64,000 nucleotides of DNA from an uncultured Candidatus Saccharibacteria bacterium. Its GTDB lineage: Bacteria > Patescibacteriota > Minisyncoccia > Minisyncoccales > GWA2-38-27. Each line of letters starts with the position of its first letter. Position 1 is the first letter of the stretch. The DNA lies in contig CAYUSS010000004.1 of NCBI GenBank assembly GCA_964447515.1, forward strand, positions 532 to 64,531. Reading direction: 5' to 3'. A program made the position numbers and the translations under genes. A model generated the notes under the pieces. The model worked only from the letters and a program-made list of their open reading frames with translations, was not told where the DNA came from and ran no database searches. Of this stretch, positions 3,570 through 55,841 are shown in pieces.

Positions 3570-3753
3570 ATGAAAAAGGTTTCCCCTGTATCTGTATGTA
3601 ATTGGCGTTATTATCGTCCTCGTGCTTATAAACTACATTGCGTGGTCCGTGGGAGGAGAGGCGAAGTTAAAAAGTTTTGAGCTACTCTCCAGCGGCTTTT
3701 TGTTAGGGATGCTGACAATGTATATAGCGGTGCATATCTATCGCTGGAAATGA
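3570..3753 (+). pseudogene. small 2-TM membrane protein interrupted by a 1-nt frameshift in an A5 run right after the ATG
   Basis: ATG 3570 sits 6 nt after TGGTAGAAT. The 2-TM ORF (..LYLYVIGVIIVLVLINYIAW...GFLLGMLTMYIAVHIYRWK, stop 3751-3753) is in the +1 frame and has no start of its own. Removing one A of ATGAAAAAGG joins the two. Confidence 0.4.
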
Positions 3754-3777
3754 GACAGTTCCAAACACCCTCTTTCT

Positions 3778-3961
3778 GTGTCTCATTTGTCTCATTTTAG
3801 CTTAAAAACCCTGAAAAATGAGACACGGCCCTTATTCACTTTAATACTATCTTTTCTATCATATTCTGGCCTTATTTTGCTTGCTTCAAAGCGACCCGTC
3901 CCCGTCAGAAGGAGCATCGGGTTTCCCTCTCAAAAGATGGTTCTGAACCCGAGTGGGGAGC
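3778..3961 (+). repeat. intergenic repeat family 'GTGTCTCATTT hairpin ... GGTTCTGAACCCG..GGGGAGC', copy 2
   Basis: Same ends as 2393-2528. The track ORF 3778..4017 only translates this repeat. Confidence 0.75.
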
Positions 3962-4029: not shown

Positions 4030-5319
4030 TTATTTCCGTTTTAGTCTTTTGATTTTCAGTTTTTTTAATGAGAATTTTGCCGTTAAAACCCTGTCTGTAT
4101 TAAACAGCCATATTGCTACATACATTGTAACTGCAGCAAAAATAATCATATATGCTATTCCGCCAAGAACAATCGGATAGTTTTGAAATATGAGGGCTTT
4201 TGAAGCAATAATCGGATGAGCAAAAGGTATAGCATATAAAAATATTTTCATTGGCAGAGAAAGCATTTCTACATCTTGAAACATTAGTAAAACATAAGGA
4301 ATCATTGCTAATAAAACAATAGGCATATTCATAATGTGGGCATTTTTTGTGCTTTGGGCAAACATTCCCAATATCATAGATATTGATAGAGCAATAAGAA
4401 TTGCCAGGAATAAAGAGATTCCCAAGAGGGTATAAGACAAAGGAGTCATTGTTAATCCTAAATCCTCAAGAATCGCTTTGCCGCTAGGAATAGCTGGCGT
4501 TATAGATGACATATAATATCTAAAACCTCCTAAAAAAACACCCGCCATTAAAAGAGCAACTACTGTCGCCCCAGTCATTTTTCCAATAACAATTGATGTT
4601 CTCTTTACCGGTAAAGTTAACAAAGTTTCTAAAGTTTTATTTTCTTTCTCTGAAACCATTGAAGTTACTATTGTTCCCCCCGCATAAATTATTAACATCA
4701 TCAAAATAACCGGTATCATCACTGATTGAGACACAACCAAACCTTCAATTATTACTGGATTCCCAGAAACCATTTTATCTTTTACTACCACAAACTCTTT
4801 TATATTTAGAGGACTTATTATATCTCCTGGATTTTTATCAGGAAAAGCTTCTTGAATAAAATTTATTGATATTTCTCTGTTAATAGAACCTATTATTGCA
4901 TTAATTGTTGCATCCGAAATCATTCCTTTCATGCTTAGTCTCTTTATTATAGAGTAAAGTTCTAAATCTACCCTTTTCTTTATTTTGATATCTTCTCCAA
5001 AATTTTCCGGGACTACCAAAAGAACTTTTGCCTCTTTTTCTTTTGCTTGCTCAATTGCTTTTTCAATATCAATTTCTGTAATTTCTGCTATTTCTATAGT
5101 TTTTTGTTGCGATAATTTATCTAAAATGCCTTTTGAGTATTGGGATTTATCTAAATCTAAAACCGCTAAATTTATTAGTTCATTGTCTTTTTCCCTAATG
5201 CCTTTCATAAAATTAGCCATTATACCAAACATAGCTATCATAAAAACCAAACCAAATATCATTTGTTTAGTCATCAATTCCTTTATTTCTTTTTTGAGAA
5301 TATTGTAAAAGTTTTTCAT
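4030..5319 (-). CDS. ABC-2 type transporter permease
   Basis: 429 aa with an N-terminal TM, a large extracytoplasmic loop and a C-terminal cluster of about 5 TMs. Shares a 4-nt overlap with the upstream ATPase gene. Confidence 0.75.
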   Translation of the reverse strand: MKNFYNILKKEIKELMTKQMIFGLVFMIAMFGIMANFMKGIREKDNELINLAVLDLDKSQYSKGILDKLSQQKTIEIAEITEIDIEKAIEQAKEKEAKVLLVVPENFGEDIKIKKRVDLELYSIIKRLSMKGMISDATINAIIGSINREISINFIQEAFPDKNPGDIISPLNIKEFVVVKDKMVSGNPVIIEGLVVSQSVMIPVILMMLIIYAGGTIVTSMVSEKENKTLETLLTLPVKRTSIVIGKMTGATVVALLMAGVFLGGFRYYMSSITPAIPSGKAILEDLGLTMTPLSYTLLGISLFLAILIALSISMILGMFAQSTKNAHIMNMPIVLLAMIPYVLLMFQDVEMLSLPMKIFLYAIPFAHPIIASKALIFQNYPIVLGGIAYMIIFAAVTMYVAIWLFNTDRVLTAKFSLKKLKIKRLKRK

Positions 5320-13078: not shown

Positions 13079-13729
13079 TTATAATAATTTAAAGTTTACA
13101 ACTAAATATCCAACCCCGAAAGGACCTTGGTAAGATAAAATTTCTGGCAGCCAATTTATTCCCGCTTCTTCTAAAATTCCTAAAAGAAAAGAAAAAGAGC
13201 GCAAGCCGCATTCTCCAGCTTCTGGATACATTTCATCTAATTTTAGAAAATTTTCAATATCTTTTTCTTTTAAAAACTTAATCAGAGCTTGGTCAAATTT
13301 AGGGCCTTGAGGATTAAAACCGTAAGGACCATCTTCTTTTAAACAGTGGGAGAGATCGCCAGAAGCAATTAAGGCGTAGTTTAATTTACGAGACCCGACC
13401 TCGTAACGAGGTCGGGTCTCGTTTTTAAGTTTTTTGTAAACTTTTTTGCCTTTTTCAAAATAAGATTTTGGAGATTCTAATCCAGTTAAATACGTTTTTA
13501 TTTCTCCTTTAAAATCTTTTGCTAAAAAATAAAGAGGAACATTAAACCCCCAATCAAGATGAGGAGAAGAGATAATTATTGCGTCGGGATTTAGTTTCAT
13601 TAATTTTTCTCCCAAAAATTCCAGGCTTTTAATAGTTTTTTCAAGTTCCTCTCTATCTTTTTCTGAGCCGACTGAAGGTAAGAGGAGAGGGGGGTGAGGG
13701 GATATAGCTGCGAAAACAATTTTTGTCAT
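13079..13729 (-). CDS. class III extradiol dioxygenase-like (LigB/Memo-like) protein with an in-frame 35-nt perfect palindrome
   Basis: N-terminal ISPHPPLLLP and SGDLSH, with EAGECG near the C-terminus. The palindrome ACGAGACCCGACCTCGT-A-ACGAGGTCGGGTCTCGT at 13388-13422 encodes ..ETRPRYEVGSR.. Confidence 0.65.
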   Translation of the reverse strand: MTKIVFAAISPHPPLLLPSVGSEKDREELEKTIKSLEFLGEKLMKLNPDAIIISSPHLDWGFNVPLYFLAKDFKGEIKTYLTGLESPKSYFEKGKKVYKKLKNETRPRYEVGSRKLNYALIASGDLSHCLKEDGPYGFNPQGPKFDQALIKFLKEKDIENFLKLDEMYPEAGECGLRSFSFLLGILEEAGINWLPEILSYQGPFGVGYLVVNFKLL

Positions 13730-24697: not shown

Positions 24698-26716
24698 ATG
24701 ATGATGAGAACAAAAATTTTCTTAATTTCTTTTATTTTAAGTTTAGCTTTCTGGTGGGGGATAAATAGTTTGGTAGAGAATTTAGAAGATTTTTTATTTT
24801 GGCAGGAAATATCTAAACAGCCGGGAATATTTACTGCCAAGGCAAGTCAACAAATTCCTAGAAACGAAGTAGAGAGATTAAGGTTTGAAAGACTACAAAC
24901 CGAATTAAAAAATTTAAAAATTGAGGCCAAAGCTGCAATTTCGGTTTTGATAAATGGTAATGGAGAGGAAAGAATTCTTTTTGGAAAAAATACTGACCAG
25001 AGATTATCAATTGCTAGTTTGACCAAATTAATGACCGCCCTTATTGTTCTGGAAAATTATGACCTTTCAAGAGAAATTACGATTTCTAAAGAAGCTATTA
25101 ACCAGCCGGGGGATTTTGGGAAATTAGAAGCAGGAAAGAATTTTCCGGTGAGATATTTACTTTATCCCTTATTAATAGAATCAAGCAATGATGCTGCTTT
25201 CTCTTTAGCCAATGATTACGAAGAGATGACAGAAGAAAAATTTGTTGAGTTGATGAATTTGGAAGCCCAAAAAATGAATCTGGAGAATACTTTTTTTGTT
25301 AATTCTACCGGTATTGACCCCAAGGAACCGGAAACCGAAATAAACAATGAGACGTTTAACGTCTCATGTGAGGGAAATTATTCAACTGCTGCTGATTTGG
25401 TTAAATTTACTAAAGAATTATTTAAAAAACCCTTAATTTGGGAAATTCTTTCTACCCCGGAATTTAATCTTTATGGACCAAAACTTATTAATACTAATGA
25501 GCTTTTAGAAGAATCTCTCGGTTGGTCGAACAGAATTATTGGAGGGAAAACCGGCGAAACCCCTCAAGCTAATGGTTGTTTTCTTTTAGTTCTTAAAACC
25601 CCTCAATCAGATTACTTAATAAATATAGTTTTGGGTTCAAACGACCGCTTTGGAGAAATGCGAAAATTATTAAATTGGCTGGAGAAAAAAGAAGAAGTAA
25701 ACCCCGTTAGAGATTCCGAGAGTAGAGAAGAAGCACAGAAAAAGGGTATCTCTAACGGGGCAAAAACTTTTGACCCGGCTTTATTGGAGTGGGAAGAGAT
25801 AACCTCTAATGCTCCCTGGTCTCCAAGAGACTCCCATGGTACTGTAGTTTTTCAAAATAAAATTTGGTTAATGGGAGGATTAAATGGAAATGGGTTTCAA
25901 GATAAAAATGGCAATGTTCCTTATTGGAGAGTACCTCATTATAGTGATGTTTGGTCTTCAAAAGACGGAAGAAATTGGCAGCTTGTTACTAAAAATGCTC
26001 CCTGGGGTAAAAAAAGGTCAATGCAAGCCATAGTTTTTAAAAATAAAATCTGGTTAATTGGGGGCTGGGGACCGGAAATTGGATATTCAAATGATATCTG
26101 GGTTACAGAAAATGGAATTGATTGGGAAAAGATAGAACCAAAAGGAGAATTACCGGCAGTGGAAGGAGACCAGTTAGTTGTTTTTGAAGACAAATTATGG
26201 TTAATTGGCGGAGTAAGATACGACGAAAGAAAGGAAAAAAATTATGTTTGGGTTTCTGAAGACGGCATTAATTGGACTGAAGCTACTGAAAGAGCGCCTT
26301 GGTCGCCGAGATGGGATCATACGGTAACCGTATTTAAAAATAAATTGTGGCTTATTGGCGGTATGAATTTAGAGGGAGAAATTTACCAGGATGTCTGGAG
26401 TTCTCAAGATGGGAAAAATTGGTTATTAGTTACCGATAATCCGCCTTGGCGGGGGAGACAAGGGCATGGCTCGGTAGTTTTTCAAAATAAAATTTGGATT
26501 ATTGGAAGACTTAATGGCAAAAGTACTGGTGGAGATAATGATGTTTGGTATTCAGAAGATGGTTATACTTGGGGAAAAACCCAAAAAAATGCTCCCTGGT
26601 TAGGCAGGGAAGATATTGGGGTTTTGGTCTTTAAAGATAAGATATGGGCATTAGGAGGAATGGATGGTAACTCGGAATGGAAAAATGATATTTGGTTTTC
26701 AATTTTCTCTCCTTAA
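24698..26716 (+). CDS. D-alanyl-D-alanine carboxypeptidase (S11) fused to a C-terminal Kelch-type beta-propeller
   Basis: SxxK SLTKLMT, SSND, and a KTG-like motif (GGKTGET). C-terminal half has about 6 repeats of W(S/G)PR..H..VVF.NK(I/L)WL(I/M)GG. The linker at 25701-25760 is a palindromic element. Confidence 0.75.
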   Translation: MMMRTKIFLISFILSLAFWWGINSLVENLEDFLFWQEISKQPGIFTAKASQQIPRNEVERLRFERLQTELKNLKIEAKAAISVLINGNGEERILFGKNTDQRLSIASLTKLMTALIVLENYDLSREITISKEAINQPGDFGKLEAGKNFPVRYLLYPLLIESSNDAAFSLANDYEEMTEEKFVELMNLEAQKMNLENTFFVNSTGIDPKEPETEINNETFNVSCEGNYSTAADLVKFTKELFKKPLIWEILSTPEFNLYGPKLINTNELLEESLGWSNRIIGGKTGETPQANGCFLLVLKTPQSDYLINIVLGSNDRFGEMRKLLNWLEKKEEVNPVRDSESREEAQKKGISNGAKTFDPALLEWEEITSNAPWSPRDSHGTVVFQNKIWLMGGLNGNGFQDKNGNVPYWRVPHYSDVWSSKDGRNWQLVTKNAPWGKKRSMQAIVFKNKIWLIGGWGPEIGYSNDIWVTENGIDWEKIEPKGELPAVEGDQLVVFEDKLWLIGGVRYDERKEKNYVWVSEDGINWTEATERAPWSPRWDHTVTVFKNKLWLIGGMNLEGEIYQDVWSSQDGKNWLLVTDNPPWRGRQGHGSVVFQNKIWIIGRLNGKSTGGDNDVWYSEDGYTWGKTQKNAPWLGREDIGVLVFKDKIWALGGMDGNSEWKNDIWFSIFSP

Positions 26717-26768
26717 TTTTTAAAATGGCAGTGTTTAAGTTGAGGATTTAAACATTATTCCTAAGGTT

Positions 26769-27866
26769 ATGCCGGAAATTACCATAAATGTTATTAAAAT
26801 TTTTTTTCTGGGAGCAGTTGCTTTTATTTTAGCTTTTTGGTTAACTCCGATTTTAACCCATTTTTTATATAAACATAAACTCTGGCGTAAAGAAGTTAGA
26901 ACTAAATCAATAGATGGAAAAGAACTTCCTTTTTTTCAAAAATTTCATGGCAAAGGAGAAACTAATATCCCAAGGTTTGGAGGACTACTTATTTGGGGGA
27001 CTACTTTGATTTTAGCTATTTCTTTCTTTTTGCTTTCAAAGACTAATATCTGGTGGTTTCAAAGATTAAATTTTTTAAGCAGGTCCCAGACCTGGCTGCC
27101 TCTTTTTGCTTTGGTTATAGCTTCTTTGGTTGGATTATTAGATGATATTTTGCAAGTTTTTGGCTCGCCCTTCCAAGTTTTTTTTCGAAAAATTTGGGAG
27201 GGTAAAGGAAAATATATTGGCGGCGGCTTAAAATTAAGATATCGCCTAATTTTGGTTGCTTTAATTGGATTAATTGGTGGCTGGTGGTTTTATTTTAAAT
27301 TGGGCTATACTGCTATTCATATTCCAGCCAACGGCGACTTTTTAATTGGGGCTTGGTACATCCCTTTCTTTGTTCTGGTAATGCTCGCAACTTATAGCGG
27401 AGGAGTGATTGACGGCTTGGACGGCTTGGCTGGAGGGGCTTTTGCTTCAATTTTCGCTGCCTTTGCTGGAATTGCTTTATTCAAAGGACAAATTGATATC
27501 GCTGCTTTTTGTGTTGTAATTGTGGGAGCGATTTTGGCTTTTTTATGGTTTAATATCCCTCCAGCCAGATTTTATATGGGAGAAACAGGAATATTGGGAC
27601 TTTGCTGCGCTTTAACCGTAATAGCTTTTTTAACTAATTCTGTTTTGGTTTTGCCGATAATTGGGTTTTTATTGGTTATTGAATCTGGTTCAGTGATTCT
27701 TCAACTTCTTTCAAGAAAGATTCGTCATAAGAAACTTTTTCTGGCCGCTCCTATCCATCATCATTTTGAAGCCAAAGGCTGGCCTCATTATAAAATCACA
27801 ATGAGGTTTTGGGTTATCGGCGTTGTGATGGCGATAATAGGCGTTGCCATAAGATTATTAGGCTAA
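26769..27866 (+). CDS. mraY: phospho-N-acetylmuramoyl-pentapeptide transferase (carries an in-frame palindromic insert)
   Basis: Polytopic, with GLLDDILQVF and NIPPARFYMGETG. Insert at 27168-27202 encodes PFQVFFRKIWEG. Confidence 0.9.
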   Translation: MPEITINVIKIFFLGAVAFILAFWLTPILTHFLYKHKLWRKEVRTKSIDGKELPFFQKFHGKGETNIPRFGGLLIWGTTLILAISFFLLSKTNIWWFQRLNFLSRSQTWLPLFALVIASLVGLLDDILQVFGSPFQVFFRKIWEGKGKYIGGGLKLRYRLILVALIGLIGGWWFYFKLGYTAIHIPANGDFLIGAWYIPFFVLVMLATYSGGVIDGLDGLAGGAFASIFAAFAGIALFKGQIDIAAFCVVIVGAILAFLWFNIPPARFYMGETGILGLCCALTVIAFLTNSVLVLPIIGFLLVIESGSVILQLLSRKIRHKKLFLAAPIHHHFEAKGWPHYKITMRFWVIGVVMAIIGVAIRLLG

Positions 27867-27874
27867 TAATAATT

Positions 27875-27948
27875 ATGTTCAACACCCGACGTTGAACACC
27901 CGACCTTAAACACTTAAAAACGGCTCACTGCGTAGCGAGCCGTTTTGT
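27875..27948 (+). repeat. GTTCAAsACCCGACsTTGAACACCCGACCTTAAACA repeat plus terminator hairpin module (after mraY)
   Basis: ATGTTCAACACCCGACGTTGAACACCCGACCTTAAACA, then AAAAACGGCTCACT-GCGT-AGCGAGCCGTTTTG. The same module lies at 31912-31982. Confidence 0.75.
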
Positions 27949-28011
27949 TTTGACCAAAAAGAGAAAATAAAGTAAAATTAAAGCAATGATAGGGATTTTT
28001 GATTAAACTCT

Positions 28012-29373
28012 ATGAAATTGTTCAAAGATAAAAAAGTAACCGTAATGGGACTGGGATTGCACGGCGGTGGAGCAGGAGTGGCTAAATTTTTCTCTAAGCA
28101 AGGGGCAAAAGTTTTAGTAACCGACCTTAAGACAAAAAAGCAATTAAGAGAATCTCTCCAGAAACTCAAAGACCTGCCTATAAAATTTGTCTTAGGCGGG
28201 CACCGAGAAGAGGATTTCATCAATACCGATTTAATTATTAAAAATCCGGCTGTTCCCAGCAACTCCCCTTATCTTAAAATTGCCAGAAAGCATGATATTC
28301 TTATAAAAACTGATGTCAGTATATTTTTTGACCTATGCCCAGCCCCAATTATCGGAGTTACCGGCACTAAAGGAAAATCAACTGTTGCCTTTCTTATCTA
28401 TCTTTTTTTAACAAGCAAATATCCAGATACAATTCTGGCCGGAAACATTGGCCTATCCCCCTTAGAAGTTTTTTCTAAAATTCAAAAATTTGGCAGCAGG
28501 GGCAAAGTGGTTTTAGAACTTTCCAGTTTTGAACTTGAAGATTTAAAAAAGAGTCCAAAAGTAGCTGTAATTACTACTATTTTTCCAGACCATTTAGACA
28601 GGTATAAGAATTTTAAAGATTATATCAGAGCAAAAAAATCAATTTTCAAATATCAGAACGAAAATGATATTTTGGTTTTAAATTATGGTAATCCTGAAGC
28701 ACGAAAGCTTGCCTCAGAGACTCGCTCCAAAGTTTATTTCTTTACCCCGTTAAATAGTTGCAAAGCAAATTTAACGGGGTTTAAGGATTCCAATGTTTCA
28801 GCTGCTCTTGCTGTTGCTAAAATTTTCAAAATTCCTAAAAAAAATATTGGAAAGGTTCTTTCTAATTTCAAAGGCCTTCCTCATAGGCAAGAACTAATTG
28901 CTACCAAGAAAGGAAAGAAATATATTAACGATGCCACCGCTACCACCCCTCAATCAGTGATATTAGCAATAAATACATTTAAAAAGAGGTTTCCTGGTTC
29001 TAAAATTATTCTTATTGCTGGCGGTTTGGATAAAAATTTAAAGTATAAAGGTCTAGCCGAAGAGATTCAAAAAAAAATAGATTGTCTTATTCTTTTGCCA
29101 GGTACTGCTTCTGATAAAATTAGAAAAGAGTTAAAGAGTTTTACCCCGTTAGAGATTACGGGAAAGGAAAGAAAACACAGATTACACAAATCTCTAACGG
29201 GGTTTAAAATATATCCTGTTAATTCAATGAATCAAGCAGTAAAAAAGGGTTCAAATTTAGCTAAAAAAGGTGACCTTGTTTTGCTTTCTCCTGGAGCCGC
29301 GAGTTTCAACTTATTTAAAAATGAATTTGATAGGGGAGAGCAATTTCTCAAAGCAGTAAAAAAACTCAAATAG
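28012..29373 (+). CDS. murD: UDP-N-acetylmuramoylalanine--D-glutamate ligase (two in-frame palindromic inserts)
   Basis: VMGLGLHGGG, GVTGTKGKST, GLPHRQE, NDATATTP. Inserts at 28744-28780 and 29153-29213. Confidence 0.9.
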   Translation: MKLFKDKKVTVMGLGLHGGGAGVAKFFSKQGAKVLVTDLKTKKQLRESLQKLKDLPIKFVLGGHREEDFINTDLIIKNPAVPSNSPYLKIARKHDILIKTDVSIFFDLCPAPIIGVTGTKGKSTVAFLIYLFLTSKYPDTILAGNIGLSPLEVFSKIQKFGSRGKVVLELSSFELEDLKKSPKVAVITTIFPDHLDRYKNFKDYIRAKKSIFKYQNENDILVLNYGNPEARKLASETRSKVYFFTPLNSCKANLTGFKDSNVSAALAVAKIFKIPKKNIGKVLSNFKGLPHRQELIATKKGKKYINDATATTPQSVILAINTFKKRFPGSKIILIAGGLDKNLKYKGLAEEIQKKIDCLILLPGTASDKIRKELKSFTPLEITGKERKHRLHKSLTGFKIYPVNSMNQAVKKGSNLAKKGDLVLLSPGAASFNLFKNEFDRGEQFLKAVKKLK

Positions 29374-31911: not shown

Positions 31912-32014
31912 ATGTTCAAGACCCGACCTTGAACACCCGACCTTAAACAGTAAAAACGGCTCGCTCTCGTGAGCCGTTTTGCCTGTCCCGCACCGAGCGA
32001 AGCTCGGTGCGGGG
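31912..32014 (+). repeat. GTTCAAsACCCGAC repeat plus two terminator-like hairpins (after murG)
   Basis: ATGTTCAAGACCCGACCTTGAACACCCGACCTTAAACA, then AAAAACGGCTCGCT-CTCG-TGAGCCGTTTTG, then CCCGCACCGAGC-GAA-GCTCGGTGCGGG. Confidence 0.75.
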
Positions 32015-33512: not shown

Positions 33513-33682
33513 GACATAACACCCGATGTTGAGGAATTGGCGGTGAAGCCGCCAAGGCAAACATCGGGTGTTGTACGGAGAACTGTTCTCCAAATATTGA
33601 TTTTTGTTTGACATTTGTTAAAAAATAAGTTATAACAAAAGAAGAAAACAAAGAATTTTGACAATAGAATAAGGAGTGAAAA

Positions 33683-39977: not shown

Positions 39978-39992
39978 AAAAAATCATCGCTC

Positions 39993-40084
39993 GGCAAAAT
40001 GATTTTCTTGAACAACCCCCGCCCCGCTGCAGCGGGGCGGGGGACCACATCCACCCACCTCATGCTCAAGAAAATCATTTTGCC
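39993..40084. repeat. nested palindrome: AT-rich 19-bp arms enclosing a perfect 28-bp GC palindrome
   Basis: GGCAAAATGATTTTCTTGA at 39993-40011 pairs with TCAAGAAAATCATTTTGCC at 40066-40084. Inside is CCCCCGCCCCGC-TGCA-GCGGGGCGGGGG at 40016-40043. Confidence 0.8.
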
Positions 40085-40116
40085 TCGCTTAATAATTCTG
40101 TTATTTATATTAAATA

Positions 40117-44406: not shown

Positions 44407-44522
44407 TAAATAATTTTAACATATTTTAGAAAATAATACCCGACATTGAACATCAAAAATGTCGGGTATTGAACATTTTATTGACTTTTGGATATAATTT
44501 GATAAAATGGTAAGGTAGAATT

Positions 44523-48264: not shown

Positions 48265-48304
48265 AAAACCCGATGTTACATAGAATTGTGGAACATCGGG
48301 TTTT
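48265..48304 (+). terminator. terminator-like hairpin after dnaJ
   Basis: AAAACCCGATGTT-(14 nt)-AACATCGGGTTTT. Confidence 0.6.
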
Positions 48305-48355: not shown

Positions 48356-48429
48356 GCCCCCATAGCTCAACTAGGTAGAGCAGGATCCTTTTAAGATCAA
48401 GGTTCTCCGTTCGATTCGGAGTGGGGGCA
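48356..48429 (+). tRNA. tRNA-Lys (anticodon UUU)
   Basis: Manual cloverleaf: acceptor GCCCCCA/TGGGGGC, D arm GCTC..GAGC, anticodon arm GGATC-CTTTTAA-GATCA, T arm CTCCG-TTCGATT-CGGAG. No encoded CCA. Confidence 0.9.
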
Positions 48430-48437
48430 CTATTAAT

Positions 48438-49265
48438 ATGACAGATCCATTATTAGTAGAAAAATGCAGGAAATTGAGAAAAAAAGGATTTACTCTTGGA
48501 AAAATTATTAAAGCTACTGGTCTTCCAAAAACTACAGTTTATGAGCATATTTGTGATATTCCACTTTCTAAAGAAATGAGGGAAAGAATAAGAAAAGAGG
48601 CAAGAGAAAAAATCAATGAATTTATTAAAAAATATAGAAAAGGAAAATGTATTCCTGGAAGAATAGTGCCCAAGCCAAAAGGATGAACAAATGAATTAAT
48701 ATTTCTTACAGCTCATTTTATGTTTGATGGAGAAATTAGATATGGTAGTTGCGTTTATCAAAATAGAAATATTGCTCTGGTTAATAAAGTAAAGGATTTG
48801 ATGCAAAAGATTTTTAATTTAAAACCTTATAATAAATTTTACGAAGAAACTGGAGTTCACCGAATTTCTTTTCACTATGTTGAGCTTGCCGATTATTTTA
48901 GAGAAAAAGTTAAAGAACTTAAAAAATATATCACGAATAGTTCTTTGTTAGAAAAGAAAATATTTCTTCAAGTGTTTTTTGATGATGAGGGATGTGCCTA
49001 TATCTATATTCGTGGCAATAATAGAAAGATAAGGGGATACCAACACAATTTGGAAACTTTAAGACTAATTCAAGCAATATTACAGGATTTTGATATAAAA
49101 AGCAGGATTGAAGAAAAAGGGCAAGAAGTTGTTATAAGTGGTAAACCAAACCTCATAAAATTTCGTGATAAAATTAATTTTTCAAAAGGCATTTTCATAA
49201 ATCCTGAACGTAAGAACAGTATCTGGAAGAAAAAATTAGAAAAAGAGAAATTCTTCAAAAAATAA
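48438..49265 (+). pseudogene. HTH plus LAGLIDADG homing endonuclease, single reading frame interrupted by one in-frame TGA (48684-48686)
   Basis: Track ORFs 48438..48686 and 48720..49265 share a frame with no other stop between them. Motifs are LTAHFMFDGEI and LQVFFDDEGCA (two LAGLIDADG-like helices), with an N-terminal HTH FTLGKIIKATGLPKTTVYEHI. Starts 8 nt after tRNA-Lys. Confidence 0.65.
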
Positions 49266-54643: not shown

Positions 54644-54898
54644 ATGTTAACAAAACTTATCAAATTTGTCCACCCTGTTAAATTTGCTTCGCAACTATTT
54701 AACAGGGTAAAAAAATATCAAACAGATATAATATTGGTTACTGGGGTTATTTTAATTTCTTTACTTTCCTTTGCCCTTGGATATATAACAGCTAATTATC
54801 AAGAAAAGATACCTTTAAAATTTGAATATGAAGAAACAAAAAGTAGCAATAATTGGAGCGGGAATATGTGGTCTTTATTTAGCTTGGAAACTTTCTGA
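54644..54898 (+). CDS. questionable small TM ORF
   Basis: 84-aa ORF with one TM helix. Its 5' part is a palindromic repeat (54672-54708), its 3' end overlaps the next gene by 77 nt, and the rpmA promoter must also lie here. Confidence 0.3.
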   Translation: MLTKLIKFVHPVKFASQLFNRVKKYQTDIILVTGVILISLLSFALGYITANYQEKIPLKFEYEETKSSNNWSGNMWSLFSLETF

Positions 54899-55841
54899 GA
54901 AAGGACATAAAGCTTGGATTTTTGAAAAAAAGAAAAAAATTGGGCAGGAGGTTTGTTCTGGACTTATTTCTCAAAGAATTTTAGAGTTTATCCCGCACCT
55001 TTCTTGCGCTACTTTCAGTAATTTTGACGCCGAAGGCGTCAAGCATAAGAAAGGTACGGGATTTATTCCAGAAAGCCCTAAATTAATTAAAAACCAAATA
55101 AATTTTGCCTTTTTACATTTTCCCCAAAAAACTATAAAACTAAGGTTTTCTAAAGATTTTTTTGTAATAAGTCATTTTGAATTGGATAGATTGACAGCTA
55201 ATTTAGCCATAAAAGCCGGGGCTAAAATTATTTTAAATCATGATATGTCTTCCATACCTGAAGGGTTTGATAAAGTGATTGGCTGCGATGGGGCTGGTTC
55301 TTTTGTCAGAAGGAATTTAGGTCTTCCAGATCCGGGTTTCCGAATGGGAATTCAGGGTTTTGTTGAACAAAAAACTTTTGAGAATTATGTAGAAACTTGG
55401 CCCTGTGAAAAAGGAGGGTTTATCTGGAAAATCCCCCGGGGAAATGAAATAGAATATGGTATAATTACAAAACCCCAAGAAGCGAAAAAACTTTTTGATA
55501 GTTTTTTAGAGAAAAATAAAATTTCTTTAAAAGAAAAAAAATCAAGAATAATTCCCCAGGGTTTTCTAATTCCAGCAAATCCTTTGGTTACTCTTTGCGG
55601 AGACGCCGCTGGATTGACTAAACCCTGGTCAGGAGGCGGAATAATTTGGGGATTAACAGCAGCTGAAATGCTTCTAAACGCTTTCCCTGATTTTTTATCT
55701 TATCGTAAATTAATGAAAAGATTTTTCCTTCCTAAAATTATTTTATCAAAAAACATTTCTAAATTAATTTATTTTTTAGGATATAAAATGCCCTGGTTAT
55801 TACCTTCAAAAAATAAAATAGAATCTGATTTTTTAATTTAA
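54822..55841 (+). CDS. FAD-dependent oxidoreductase (geranylgeranyl reductase-like) with an in-frame nested-hairpin insert
   Basis: VAIIGAGICGLYLA dinucleotide fold and GDAAGL. Insert 54997-55055: outer stem ACCTTTCTT/AAGAAAGGT, inner TTGACGCC-GAA-GGCGTCAA. Confidence 0.7.
   Translation: MNMKKQKVAIIGAGICGLYLAWKLSEKGHKAWIFEKKKKIGQEVCSGLISQRILEFIPHLSCATFSNFDAEGVKHKKGTGFIPESPKLIKNQINFAFLHFPQKTIKLRFSKDFFVISHFELDRLTANLAIKAGAKIILNHDMSSIPEGFDKVIGCDGAGSFVRRNLGLPDPGFRMGIQGFVEQKTFENYVETWPCEKGGFIWKIPRGNEIEYGIITKPQEAKKLFDSFLEKNKISLKEKKSRIIPQGFLIPANPLVTLCGDAAGLTKPWSGGGIIWGLTAAEMLLNAFPDFLSYRKLMKRFFLPKIILSKNISKLIYFLGYKMPWLLPSKNKIESDFLI

Follow-up and report, generated by a model that had tools for sequence, protein, structure and literature searches.

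In-frame palindromes in murD and other bacterial genes as likely ultra-short, MITE-like mobile elements

Palindromes inserted in genes and spacers

The short palindromes found in the 64-kb window (the whole stretch of DNA that was analyzed) are mobile insertions and not native gene sequence. We consider it likely that they belong to a family of ultra-short, non-autonomous, MITE-like transposable elements that land in genes in frame; insertion into many unrelated genes and spacers, with duplication of a 4-bp target (TNNA), was demonstrated. A first-pass annotation of the window had read them as selfish palindromes, resembling the Rickettsia palindromic elements (RPEs), inserted in frame twice in murD and once in an S11/Kelch gene, and this reading found support in empty sites, in an empty allele, in the occurrence of the motif elsewhere, and in the placement of the inserts in loops. 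All four palindromes were present with the arms quoted there, including the right arm of copy 1 ending in GGGGC (Table 1). Only copy 3 had to be moved: its coordinates, 29153 to 29213, were wrong by 10, and the correct span is 29143 to 29203 (one duplicated base on either side included).

Table 1. Palindromic elements and their host genes in the 64-kb window
Feature	Position	Strand	Flanks
S11-Kelch gene: Peptidase_S11 (D-Ala-D-Ala carboxypeptidase) fused to Kelch propeller, 672 aa; host of copy 1	24698..26716	+	
Copy 1, long (59-bp) subtype	25702..25760	+	TAAA (25698-25701) / CAAA (25761-25764)
murD, 453 aa; host of copies 2 and 3	28012..29373	+	
Copy 2, short (35-bp) subtype, in murD	28745..28779	+	Perfect TTTA duplication (28741-28744 / 28780-28783)
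Copy 3, long (59-bp) subtype, in murD	29144..29202	+	Perfect TTTA duplication (29140-29143 / 29203-29206)
Copy 4, short subtype, CCCTG/CAGGG arms	54673..54707	-	TCCA / TAAA, mismatched
FAD-binding oxidoreductase; host of second family	54822..55841	+	
Second palindromic family, arms TCCCGCACCTTTCTT / AAGAAAGGTACGGGA	54991..55061	+	TTTA (54987-54990 / 55062-55065)

The core CCCYGTTARA occurs eight times in the window as an exact match, arranged as four convergent pairs, against an expectation of 0.57 (standard deviation, 0.69); none of 100 dinucleotide-preserving shuffles reached eight. This bears on the simplest alternative, namely, that these proteins just have variable loops passed on by vertical descent and that the palindromy is incidental. 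MurD does vary in length among relatives (399 to 491 aa), and indels are common at its insert sites, where several other insert types occur. However, the excess of arm matches, the perfect inverted repeats with target duplications, and the recurrence of an identical 59-nt sequence in different genes, positions, frames, and phyla leave this alternative with practically no credence; cross-genome occurrence, target duplications, and a filled/empty allele pair (see below) refute it.

Folded as single strands, the four palindromes reached -18 to -25 kcal/mol (z = -5.0 to -6.5). The loop of copy 4 is, with one difference, the reverse complement of the copy 2 loop, and copy 4 thus belongs to the short subtype of copy 2, inverted. 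Its C>T change on one arm, matched by G>A on the other, does preserve pairing, as the annotation had pointed out, but this need not be a one-off compensatory event: since CCCTGTTA arms were seen elsewhere, the pair of changes could have been inherited from a variant lineage.

A 13-bp inverted repeat and a 4-bp target duplication

Each element begins and ends with a 13-bp terminal inverted repeat (CCCCGTTAGAnnn ... nnnTCTAACGGGG), and the loop enclosed by the two is variable, at ~3 to 100 nt. Positions 1 to 10 of the repeat are near-constant and positions 11 to 13 vary, yet the latter remain Watson-Crick complementary in 92, 80, and 64% of cases, respectively; from position 14 onward, arm pairing is at chance, giving a sharp 13-bp boundary. 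Element length is 29 to 64 bp (classes of 29, 35, and 59 bp, among others), rarely up to ~130 bp. The flanking 4-mers matched in 76 of 131 copies, whereas the next 4-mers outward, serving as a control, matched in 1 of 130. Nearly all duplicated 4-mers conform to TNNA, preferably (G)TNNA(C), with TTTA the commonest (28 copies), followed by TAAA (19), TCAA (8), TGAA (7), TTCA (6), TTGA (4), and TTAA (2). As a point against this reading, a perfect duplication is absent in ~40% of copies, and one flank pair, TTCA/TAAA, recurs unexplained in 18. The duplication had gone unrecorded in the first-pass annotation. With terminal inverted repeats, a target duplication, small size, no transposase gene inside, and many copies (>160 in the fetched loci, four of them in the window and three each in the 17-kb loci L128 and L129), the family shows these hallmarks of MITEs; no related autonomous element with the same ends was found in the window or in 1.08 Mb of loci.

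Filled and empty sites in murD

Copy 2 adds 39 bp, or 13 codons, to murD (TPLNSCKANLTGF), and copy 3 adds 63 bp, or 21 codons (TPLEITGKERKHRLHKSLTGF); translation bore out that both encode FTPL...LTGFK. At one murD site, empty orthologue alleles read TTC TTT AAA GAT, and both the window and L128 have the filled form, TTTA[element]TTTA. A second murD site is flanked by TTTA/TTTA in the window versus TTAA/TTAA in L130, which points to independent hits. The element is present in 17 of 120 MurD orthologues, at five or more positions, and the closest relatives of the carriers mostly lack it, one of them at 97% core identity. Alignment with orthologues, which the annotation had proposed as a check, thus showed the segments to be lineage-specific, with clean empty sites in orthologues without them. 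A near-isogenic empty allele, also sought there, exists as well: L142 and L143 share 96 to 98% DNA identity across the aligned murD-ftsW-murG region, and their length difference in murD is exactly 63 bp, i.e., one 59-bp element plus the second TTTA. Counting against our preferred reading, this pair does not distinguish insertion from seamless excision.

The AlphaFold model of MurD has a mean pLDDT of 86.6, and pLDDT falls below 50 only in residues 248 to 257 and 380 to 396, which are the two inserts. Both are placed between secondary-structure elements, as low-confidence loops of the predicted structure, in line with the surface-loop placement that was to be checked, and the alignment to PDB 3lk7 is broken at both.

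Their very high stability, the conservation of arm sequence across phyla, the pairing kept through the double change in copy 4, and the location of some copies in spacers or right after stop codons (as in L129) might suggest that the palindromes are functional hairpins selected by the host (RNA regulatory or processing elements, terminators or attenuators, or protein-binding DNA sites) and not selfish DNA. Against this, close relatives differ haphazardly in whether they carry the element and where in a given gene it lies, the host genes are unrelated, target duplications are found, pairing breaks off sharply after 13 bp, and the loops show no constraint. Moreover, old copies (among them L130, P0036, and P0085) no longer pair, as expected for junk and not for a selected structure. 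Only two tRNAs in the window reached Rfam gathering thresholds, and a permissive Rfam search with both murD copies returned nothing beyond sub-threshold microRNA-hairpin noise. While individual copies could have been co-opted by the host, we regard a selected function for the family as extremely unlikely.

Reading frames, host genes, and distribution

Element plus 4-bp duplication amounts to a whole number of codons in 78 of 131 copies (P = 7e-10). Long open reading frames (ORFs) contain 30 of 137 copies, and 29 of these 30 add a multiple of 3 bp. The in-gene copies use only two stop-free frames, xPVR...SNGx or FTPLE...LTGF; the third frame of the arms reads CCC CGT TAG/TAA. The hosts are unrelated housekeeping genes (holB, infB, polA, uvrD, folD, proB, comEC, and one encoding an aminoacyl-tRNA synthetase). 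Several copies are placed in domain linkers (elsewhere, those of Memo-AMMECR1, FolD, and a radical-SAM/NirDL protein), and others are in spacers.

We infer that the element would be transcribed and translated with its host protein, as a disordered surface loop or interdomain linker, and that selection would remove frame-breaking insertions; tolerance of such loops and linkers would explain how the essential murD can carry two. The case for translation of the inserts rests solely on frame statistics, without proteomic or transcript evidence. An element removed after transcription or translation (intron-like, by bypass, or intein-like), leaving a mature protein without the insert, could likewise be tolerated in essential genes, and the stable hairpin, with an exact direct repeat on either side, could in principle guide precise removal; in prepilin genes, the element even lies in the leader, which is cleaved off anyway. 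But removal would make both the codon-multiple length and the stop-free frames needless, the inserts occupy loops and linkers, which can accommodate extra residues, and no known self-splicing RNA or intein comes close to being as small as the element, which also has no Rfam match. We therefore judge removal very unlikely.

The element scan yielded at least 120 loci. Genomes among the matches listed are labelled as about 14 named phylum-level groups, such as CPR, Omnitrophota, Planctomycetota, Desulfobacterota, Nitrospirota, Bacteroidota, and Cloacimonadota. These labels were taken from the titles of metagenome-assembled genome (MAG) records, and some short contigs are possibly mis-binned; carrier contigs include lengths of 0.75 to 2.2 Mb. 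The motif is thus abundant in other genomes, in keeping with the reading in the annotation, which had proposed a genome-wide count. The cross-phylum distribution itself was absent from that annotation, and small, AT-rich genomes are not the only ones to have the family. We found no published description of it.

Copy 1, copy 4, and a second palindromic family

Copy 1, whose reading frame yields VNPVRDSESREEAQKKGISNGAK, does link the Peptidase_S11 domain to the Kelch propeller, as annotated. Three syntenic S11 orthologues (324 to 331 aa) lack the element and the entire Kelch region and terminate 4 to 6 residues ahead of the copy 1 position, and in L129 an element (4446 to 4502) occupies the spacer directly after the S11 stop. 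We infer that copy 1 probably lay at first in the spacer downstream of a separate S11 gene, before it became the S11-Kelch linker.

Copy 4 sits in the spacer between the divergent rpmA and oxidoreductase genes, within an 84-aa ORF (54644 to 54898). That every copy lies in an ORF is therefore mechanically true, but the coding status of this one is doubtful: it overlaps the next gene, it was left uncalled on three contigs with identical rpmA-to-oxidoreductase spacer sequence, and it had no match in the protein collection. For these reasons, copy 4 is best read as probably intergenic.

The adjacent FAD-dependent oxidoreductase ORF contains a second palindromic element, of the same build as the main family, that adds 75 bp (25 codons) in frame. 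These genomes contain three further families with CCC or TCCC ends and TTTA duplications; elements with CCC... ends and TTTA duplications also occur at the same murD hot spots.

Search for a mobilizing enzyme

Movement would require an enzyme supplied in trans, an inference for which the enzyme itself was not found. A Pfam scan of ~44 ORFs in the 64-kb window revealed no transposase-type family, and no autonomous copy was found there. All-against-all clustering of ORFs of at least 200 aa from 126 loci gave no recurring candidate gene in the flanks, the recurring families being housekeeping and pilus families only, and no full-length element was seen among terminal inverted repeat pairs 150 to 4,000 bp apart in the fetched loci (not whole genomes). 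The CCC...GGG ends and the 4-bp T..A duplication by analogy suggest an IS1380/piggyBac-type enzyme, which we hold as a tentative lead only. A tblastn search with the transposase of ISEcp1 (IS1380 family) found no match in 1.08 Mb of loci, a database search with it retrieved only relatives at least 83% identical to ISEcp1, and the inverted repeats listed for the ISEcp1 locus include no copy of the terminal repeat of our family.

The smallest members (29 to 37 bp, with loops of 3 to 13 nt) look too short for duplex synapsis by a classical DDE transposase, a point against our explanation. They are essentially bare hairpins, folding is strong, and one might suppose that an HUH (Y1) enzyme mobilizes the elements as single-stranded hairpins, in the style of REP/BIME-RAYT or IS200/IS605. 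The covarying arms, which stay complementary, would fit, as would the failure to find a DDE transposase in any of the searches above and the fact that copies 2 and 4 have common arms and loop at unrelated sites, which suggests that the short form spreads as such. HUH transposition, however, inserts beside a fixed tetra- or pentanucleotide without target duplication. Here, the flanking 4-mer varies among at least the seven forms listed above and yet is the same on both sides in most copies, the filled/empty murD pair shows an exact 4-bp duplication, a GTAG-type 5' motif is absent, and the elements are not extragenic. The lack of a recurring flank gene also weighs against such an enzyme, with the reservation that neither the flank clustering nor the window Pfam scan was RAYT/TnpA-specific for flanking loci. 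All in all, we consider HUH mobilization improbable and retain MITE-like insertion with target duplication.

Comparison with known elements

RPEs (RPE-1 to RPE-10) are palindromic, recur many times inside unrelated coding genes, always in frame, and are regarded as selfish (PMC10969869). The present family works like them, as palindromic repeats in frame in unrelated ORFs that encode a family-specific peptide at structurally tolerated sites, yet it is distinct and much smaller, an analogue and not a member. RPEs measure ~100 to 150 bp and are confined to Rickettsia and relatives, and membership was rejected on both length (29 to 64 bp) and hosts (CPR plus about 13 other phylum-level groups). 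Unlike RPEs, the family has sharply bounded 13-bp inverted repeats and a clear 4-bp TNNA duplication; no sequence relationship is apparent, although no direct comparison with RPE reference sequences was made.

With bacterial MITEs the family shares terminal inverted repeats, target-site duplication, lack of coding capacity, many copies, and hairpin folding. Occasional in-frame fusions with host ORFs are known for bacterial MITEs (Correia/NEMIS, ERIC, RUP, Coxiella QMITE1/2, and Nezha) (PMC10969869, PMC5896051). Typical ones are 100 to 400 bp long, often have TA ends or duplications, and are ~90% intergenic (PMC11602168). They are usually limited to a genus or family, whereas this family is several-fold smaller, occurs across phyla, and is strongly enriched for a codon-multiple length of element plus duplication.

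The piggyBac elements duplicate TTAA, rarely TAAA and TCAA, and have short inverted repeats, 5'-CCC...GGG-3' (PMC10813416), and IS1380 is their prokaryotic counterpart (PMC5718144). A 4-bp T..A duplication and CCCC...GGGG ends recall both, but the two central target bases are free (TNNA) in place of the fixed TTAA of piggyBac; we treat the resemblance as a possible lead and not as membership.

REP/BIME (RAYT) and IS200/IS605-derived elements are likewise very short (~35 to 40 nt), highly structured, many-copy palindromes. REPs lie outside genes, carry a conserved tetranucleotide at the 5' end, and do not duplicate their target. The present elements, unlike REPs, show copy-specific 4-bp duplications, are frequently intragenic, and have no recurring candidate gene in the examined flanks; variable duplications and the proportion of copies in long ORFs speak against assignment to either type. 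Finally, PARCELs are coding sequences with dyad symmetry that have spread horizontally among distant microbes (PMC2996958), features they share with this family. They form tandem arrays of a 25-residue repeat and whole surface proteins, whereas the elements described here are single short inserts in housekeeping enzymes, with target duplications.

Implications

CPR/Patescibacteria genomes are small, gene-dense, and usually described as poor in mobile DNA. One essential cell-wall gene nevertheless carries two copies, and related strains have others at different sites, which indicates that part of CPR protein length variation is transposon-made. The family offers a clean natural experiment on which protein sites tolerate 11 to 21 extra residues and may show spacers turning into domain linkers, with S11-Kelch as a case. 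In MAG studies, the inserts will lead astray length filters based on orthology, gene callers, structure prediction, and the design of primers. Several matches were located at contig ends, from which we infer that the hairpins break assemblies.

For a bacterial MITE, it is unusual that one 13-bp inverted repeat is found in about 14 phylum-level groups, which implies either a widely traveling transposase or a very old conserved one, still unidentified. We can only speculate, with considerable doubt, that the elements form a pan-bacterial superfamily of miniature elements, possibly IS1380/piggyBac-like, adapted to life inside genes; length classes would then be tuned so that element and duplication make whole codons, the arms are stop-free in two frames, and excision may be seamless. 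If this were true, the superfamily would supply new loops, interdomain linkers, and gene fusions in a general and reversible way, with S11-Kelch and the linker copies in Memo-AMMECR1, FolD, and the radical-SAM/NirDL protein as examples, and its effect would be felt most in reduced, gene-dense genomes such as those of CPR bacteria.

Four copies of one palindromic element

All four palindromes claimed in the first-pass annotation, with the arms quoted there, are present in the window (see the table). Copy 3 had been placed at 29153-29213, 10 nucleotides off. The core motif CCCYGTTARA has eight exact occurrences in the window, all in convergent pairs, against an expected count of 0.57; eight was reached in 0 of 100 shuffles. 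Each copy is predicted to fold into a hairpin (free energy, -18 to -25 kcal/mol; z-scores, -5 to -6.5), with a purine-rich loop in the long form (copies 1 and 3) and a mini-hairpin inside the loop in the short form (copies 2 and 4). Relative to the reversed copy 2, copy 4 has one loop base changed and a paired C>T/G>A change. Rfam gave no family for them, either with gathering thresholds across the window or with permissive ones on the two murD copies.

The genome, Candidatus Nealsonbacteria-like and a member of the CPR, has a G+C content of 34-36%, and the window matches a 67-kb JGI contig. Its conserved cell-wall cluster comprises aspS, S11 peptidase, mraY, murD, ftsW and murG; murI precedes murD in relatives, and no murI ORF is visible at this place, since no more than 145 bp separate mraY from murD. 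Every copy had been said to lie in an open reading frame, which holds in a mechanical sense, but copy 4 is probably intergenic: it is surrounded by an 84-aa ORF that runs into the following gene and is left uncalled on three contigs that are identical across the spacer.

Features of the window and of related loci (L numbers, element-bearing or murD-region loci from other genomes; window positions unless a locus is named)
Feature	Position	Sequence or size	Context
Copy 1	25701-25761 (core 25702-25760)	long subtype, 59 bp	between Peptidase_S11 domain and Kelch propeller, 672-aa ORF
Copy 2	28744-28780	short subtype, 35 bp	murD
Copy 3	29143-29203	long subtype, 59 bp	murD
Copy 4	54672-54708	short subtype, 35 bp, inverted relative to copy 2	divergent spacer, rpmA/FAD oxidoreductase
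Predicted insert junction peptides (examples)		SFTPLEITGK; SLTGFKIYPVNSMNQAVK	window
Long-type element	L129, 4446-4502		73-nt spacer, S11 stop codon to mraY
Prepilin insertions	L026, 2510-2546 and 4164-4216; L072, 6029-6057 and 6622-6650; L098, 1581-2906; L051; L057; L110		prepilin-type genes
Second-family element	54991-55061	arms TCCCGCACCTTTCTT; +75 bp	oxidoreductase gene
Related palindrome	L129	CCCAGCACCATTTTT	murD site A
Related palindrome	L128	CCCCCCACTTTC	murD C-terminal motif
Perfect palindrome, 10-bp stem	25347-25367	ATGAGACGT-TTA-ACGTCTCAT	S11 domain
Perfect G+C-rich palindrome, 17-bp stem	13388-13422	ACGAGACCCGACCTCGT-A-ACGAGGTCGGGTCTCGT	LigB-family gene, in frame
Hairpins with common arms	33518-33572; 44435-44470; 48265-48304	A(A/T)ACCCGA(T/C)(G/A)TT	intergenic, after or between genes
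Palindrome, 94 bp	39992-40085	22-nt arms GGCAAAATGATTTTCTTGAACA	intergenic, FemAB-family gene/ftsQ
G+C-rich hairpin	31987-32013	CCCGCACCGAGC-GAA-GCTCGGTGCGGG	intergenic, murG/next tRNA synthetase gene
Hairpin	516-552; 1426-1462	CAAATTTAAAAATCCC...GGGACTTTTAAATTTG	upstream of two paralogous Peptidase_S51 genes
Inverted-repeat set	2393-2441; 3748-3826	GTGTCTCATTT / AAATGAGACAC	intergenic
LAGLIDADG_3 ORF	48720-49265	181 aa	just downstream of tRNA-Lys (48356-48430)

Filled and empty murD alleles

The proposal that the murD segments are lineage-specific insertions was borne out by an alignment of 120 MurD orthologues (56-100% identity), most of which are uninterrupted at both sites (KVYFF|KDSN and KKF|KIY). 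A 21-residue segment, FTPLE..K.KK.HK...LTG, occurs in 17 of the 120 at no fewer than five different positions: it is found at the N-terminus, at two neighbouring sites in the middle of the protein, at the copy-3 site and within a conserved motif, SPGAASF|NLFKNEF. Its carriers are scattered, and their closest relatives usually lack it (e.g., orthologues P0038 versus P0018, with 97% core identity). At the nucleotide level, empty alleles read TTC TTT AAA GAT and filled alleles TTC TTTA[CCCCG...CGGGG]TTTA AA GAT, the filled site holding the short form in the window and the long form in L128. The cleanest case is that of loci L142 and L143, which are 96-98% identical over the aligned murD-ftsW-murG region and differ in murD by exactly 63 bp, made up of the 59-bp element and an extra TTTA; they supply the empty site that the first-pass annotation had proposed to look for. 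The copy-3 site is flanked by TTTA/TTTA in the window and by TTAA/TTAA in L130, and these different duplications point to separate hits on one hot spot. In the MurD 90% cluster, both inserts are found in every member, with no polymorphism at that level. Arm complementarity is gone in old copies (L130, P0036 and one of the two in P0085), as unselected DNA is expected to decay in this way.

The murD hot spots also hold short inserts of other kinds that are confined to particular lineages, among them FFKEPSSFKV, LPTGQAG and SLPRGKA (P0027, P0014, P0016, P0029, P0042 to P0044 [copy-3 site], P0040/P0051 and P0101); these may represent remnants or additional families of mini-elements. Orthologue P0029 also carries two element copies in tandem at its N-terminus.

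Element anatomy and target duplication

With the pattern ACCCCGTTARA-N(12-42)-TYTAACGGGGT and one genome per species, at least 120 loci were found, and 131 copies had usable flanks. The flanking 4-mers are the same on both sides in 76 of these 131, versus 1 of 130 for the next 4-mers outward, and the duplications fit TNNA (TTTA, 28; TAAA, 19; TCAA, 8; TGAA, 7; TTCA, 6; TTGA, 4; TTAA, 2); by eye, and untabulated, a G before and a C after the target appear favoured. Arm pairing reaches exactly 13 bp, positions 11 to 13 varying by subfamily (complementary in 92, 80 and 64%), and is at chance level from position 14 on. Loops are unconstrained, some with inner hairpins or degenerate extra arms, and a relaxed pattern gave element lengths of 25 to approximately 130 bp. 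Inverted repeats, a staggered duplication of fixed length and a loose palindromic target are together the signature of transposase-type insertion. A non-duplicated flank pair, TTCA...TAAA (reverse complement, TTTA...TGAA), in 18 copies among L001 to L120 (e.g., L018, L024, L028, L034, L064 and L072) is not accounted for by a simple 4-bp duplication and remains unexplained.

Several elements lie less than about 100 bp from contig ends (L001, L003, L008, L013, L032, L122 and L124), which suggests that repeats or hairpins break short-read assemblies.

Tolerance inside genes

The combined length of element and duplication is divisible by three in 78 of the 131 copies (p = 7e-10) and in 29 of the 30 that lie within ORFs extending 40 codons or more to either side. 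Only two reading frames are used, xPVR[NDGS]...[IF]SNGVx by 23 copies and FTPLE...LTGF by 7; the third would read CCC CGT TAG/TAA. The host proteins have no relation to one another and in many cases are essential: DNA polymerase III delta', IF-2, DNA polymerase I (twice), UvrD, FolD, glutamate 5-kinase, a class II aminoacyl-tRNA synthetase, ComEC, a pseudouridine synthase, a sulfatase, a glycosyltransferase and an O-antigen ligase. The junction of two Pfam domains is the exact location of several copies (in Memo|AMMECR1, in FolD between its two domains and in SPASM|NirDL-HTH). As for the suggestion that the inserts occupy surface loops, an AlphaFold model of the window MurD (mean pLDDT, 86.6; pTM, 0.86) agrees with it: the only segments with a pLDDT below 50, residues 248-257 and 380-396, are the two inserts, each flanked in the model by a strand and a helix. 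Both sites are breakpoints in the sequence alignment with 3lk7, a solved MurD structure.

In prepilin-type (type IV pilin-like) genes, insertions of the element recur at one precise point, the G|FT cleavage site, as in RRG-FTPLEIRRCFLTG-FTLIELLVV; a strict GFTLIEL motif occurs 10 times in the loci examined, approximately 6 times with the element. Because G|FTLIE is restored by the insertion, cleavage would remove the insert together with the leader peptide. An origin of the element from prepilin GFTLIEL coding sequence was rejected, only about 6 of 163 copies being located there; copies occur at these sites because the codons GGN-TTT-ACN include the favoured TTTAC target.

Three syntenic S11 orthologues are 324-331 aa long, with the C-terminus ...RFGEMRKLINALE, and end 4-6 residues short of the element position in the window protein; in L129 an element occupies the spacer that follows the S11 gene. 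We infer, without further evidence, that a spacer element turned linker is the simplest reading of the S11-Kelch fusion: an element 3' of S11 would have been read through once a Kelch-encoding segment was joined, and copy 1 would be the present-day linker. Elsewhere in the S11 domain, the 10-bp-stem palindrome lies within an 11-residue segment, ETEINNETFNVSCEG, that is missing from the three orthologues, and it looks like a further small in-frame palindromic insertion of another family.

Related palindromes and other hairpins

The same genomes hold further small palindromes with a TTTA duplication and ends starting with CCC or TCCC, among them the second-family element and those at the two murD positions in L129 and L128. 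Several families share one build and would thus form a superfamily with shared insertion chemistry. As separate observations, the palindrome in the LigB-family gene encodes ETRPRYEVGSR, and the copy-3 site of some MurD orthologues is filled by similar short peptides (ETRSLSTDRE, DARPLSADRG). The three intergenic hairpins with common arms are a separate repeated family, the 94-bp palindrome encloses a 28-bp perfect G+C-only palindrome (CCCCCGCCCCGCTGCAGCGGGGCGGGGG), and the hairpin next to murG has arms that start like those of the second element family (TCCCGCACC...).

Search for a mobilising enzyme

The elements encode nothing and must therefore be mobilised in trans. Pfam searches of about 44 ORFs in the window detected no transposase-type family, and all-against-all clustering of ORFs of at least 200 aa in 126 loci returned only housekeeping and pilus clusters, with no recurring transposase. 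As a separate observation, a free-standing ORF with a LAGLIDADG_3 homing-endonuclease domain (E = 2.7e-7) has no obvious intron or intein around it. Solo arms and pairs of inverted repeat and duplication 150-4000 bp apart, sought as a parent element, were neighbouring small copies only; a metagenome scan for the parent with a subfamily-specific left-end pattern, which was too specific, gave 7 loci, mostly one murD site.

In IS1380, the repeats are 15 bp long and the 4-bp duplication is TCGA. It is the prokaryotic counterpart of piggyBac (PMC5718144), which has a TTAA target and CCC ends (PMC10813416). By analogy, the 5'-CCC...GGG-3' ends and 4-bp T..A duplication, which match those of piggyBac, might hint at this group, an assignment that we consider less likely than not and treat as a lead and not as a test. 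A tblastn search of all loci with an IS1380-family transposase (ISEcp1) gave no match, and a database search with it returned only relatives at least 83% identical.

Mobilisation of single-strand hairpins by an HUH enzyme stays open as a rival to transposase-type insertion: the smallest members (29-37 bp, with 3-13 nt between repeats) would be awkward for duplex synapsis, whereas HUH systems lack variable target duplications. Integron attC sites were discarded, with core motifs in the wrong order and no cassette context, as were dif/Xer sites, whose match is no more than a 7-nt AT-rich coincidence.

Distribution and relation to known elements

That the motif recurs in other genomes was confirmed by the species-level scan, whose loci span approximately 14 phylum-level groups. 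By record title, at least about 27 loci are from Planctomycetota, at least 26 from CPR/Patescibacteria across many classes, at least 22 from Omnitrophota, at least 12 from Desulfobacterota or "delta" proteobacteria, at least 8 from Bacteroidota, at least 4 from Nitrospirota and at least 3 each from Cloacimonadota and Proteobacteria. Among the matches listed, Nitrospinota, Ignavibacteriota, Clostridia, Elusimicrobia, WOR-3, Riflebacteria and Edwardsbacteria are single occurrences, and there is one Methanosarcinales bin. Mis-binning is unlikely as a general explanation, given matches on contigs as long as 0.75, 1.7 and 2.2 Mb. Only 6 matches were found among 2.9 million viral contigs, so phages are no obvious vehicle.

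In function, the likeness to Rickettsia palindromic elements is supported, those too being selfish palindromes that genes tolerate within their reading frames (PMC10969869); since length, hosts and end structure all differ, the element is not one of them. It meets the structural definition of a MITE, with the autonomous partner unidentified. Typical bacterial MITEs measure 100-400 bp, lie between genes in about 90% of cases and do not range beyond a genus or family (PMC11602168, PMC5896051), whereas this element is much smaller, has a whole-codon length bias and is shared far more widely. Literature searches (arm sequences; palindromes or MITEs in CPR, Patescibacteria or Parcubacteria; in-frame palindromic insertions in MAGs) retrieved no description, but subscription journals were mostly uncovered and a prior description is not excluded. 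Overall, the finding goes further than the first-pass annotation could tell: these mobile miniature palindromes make up a family that is widespread and apparently undescribed, that duplicates a defined target and that is probably a superfamily.
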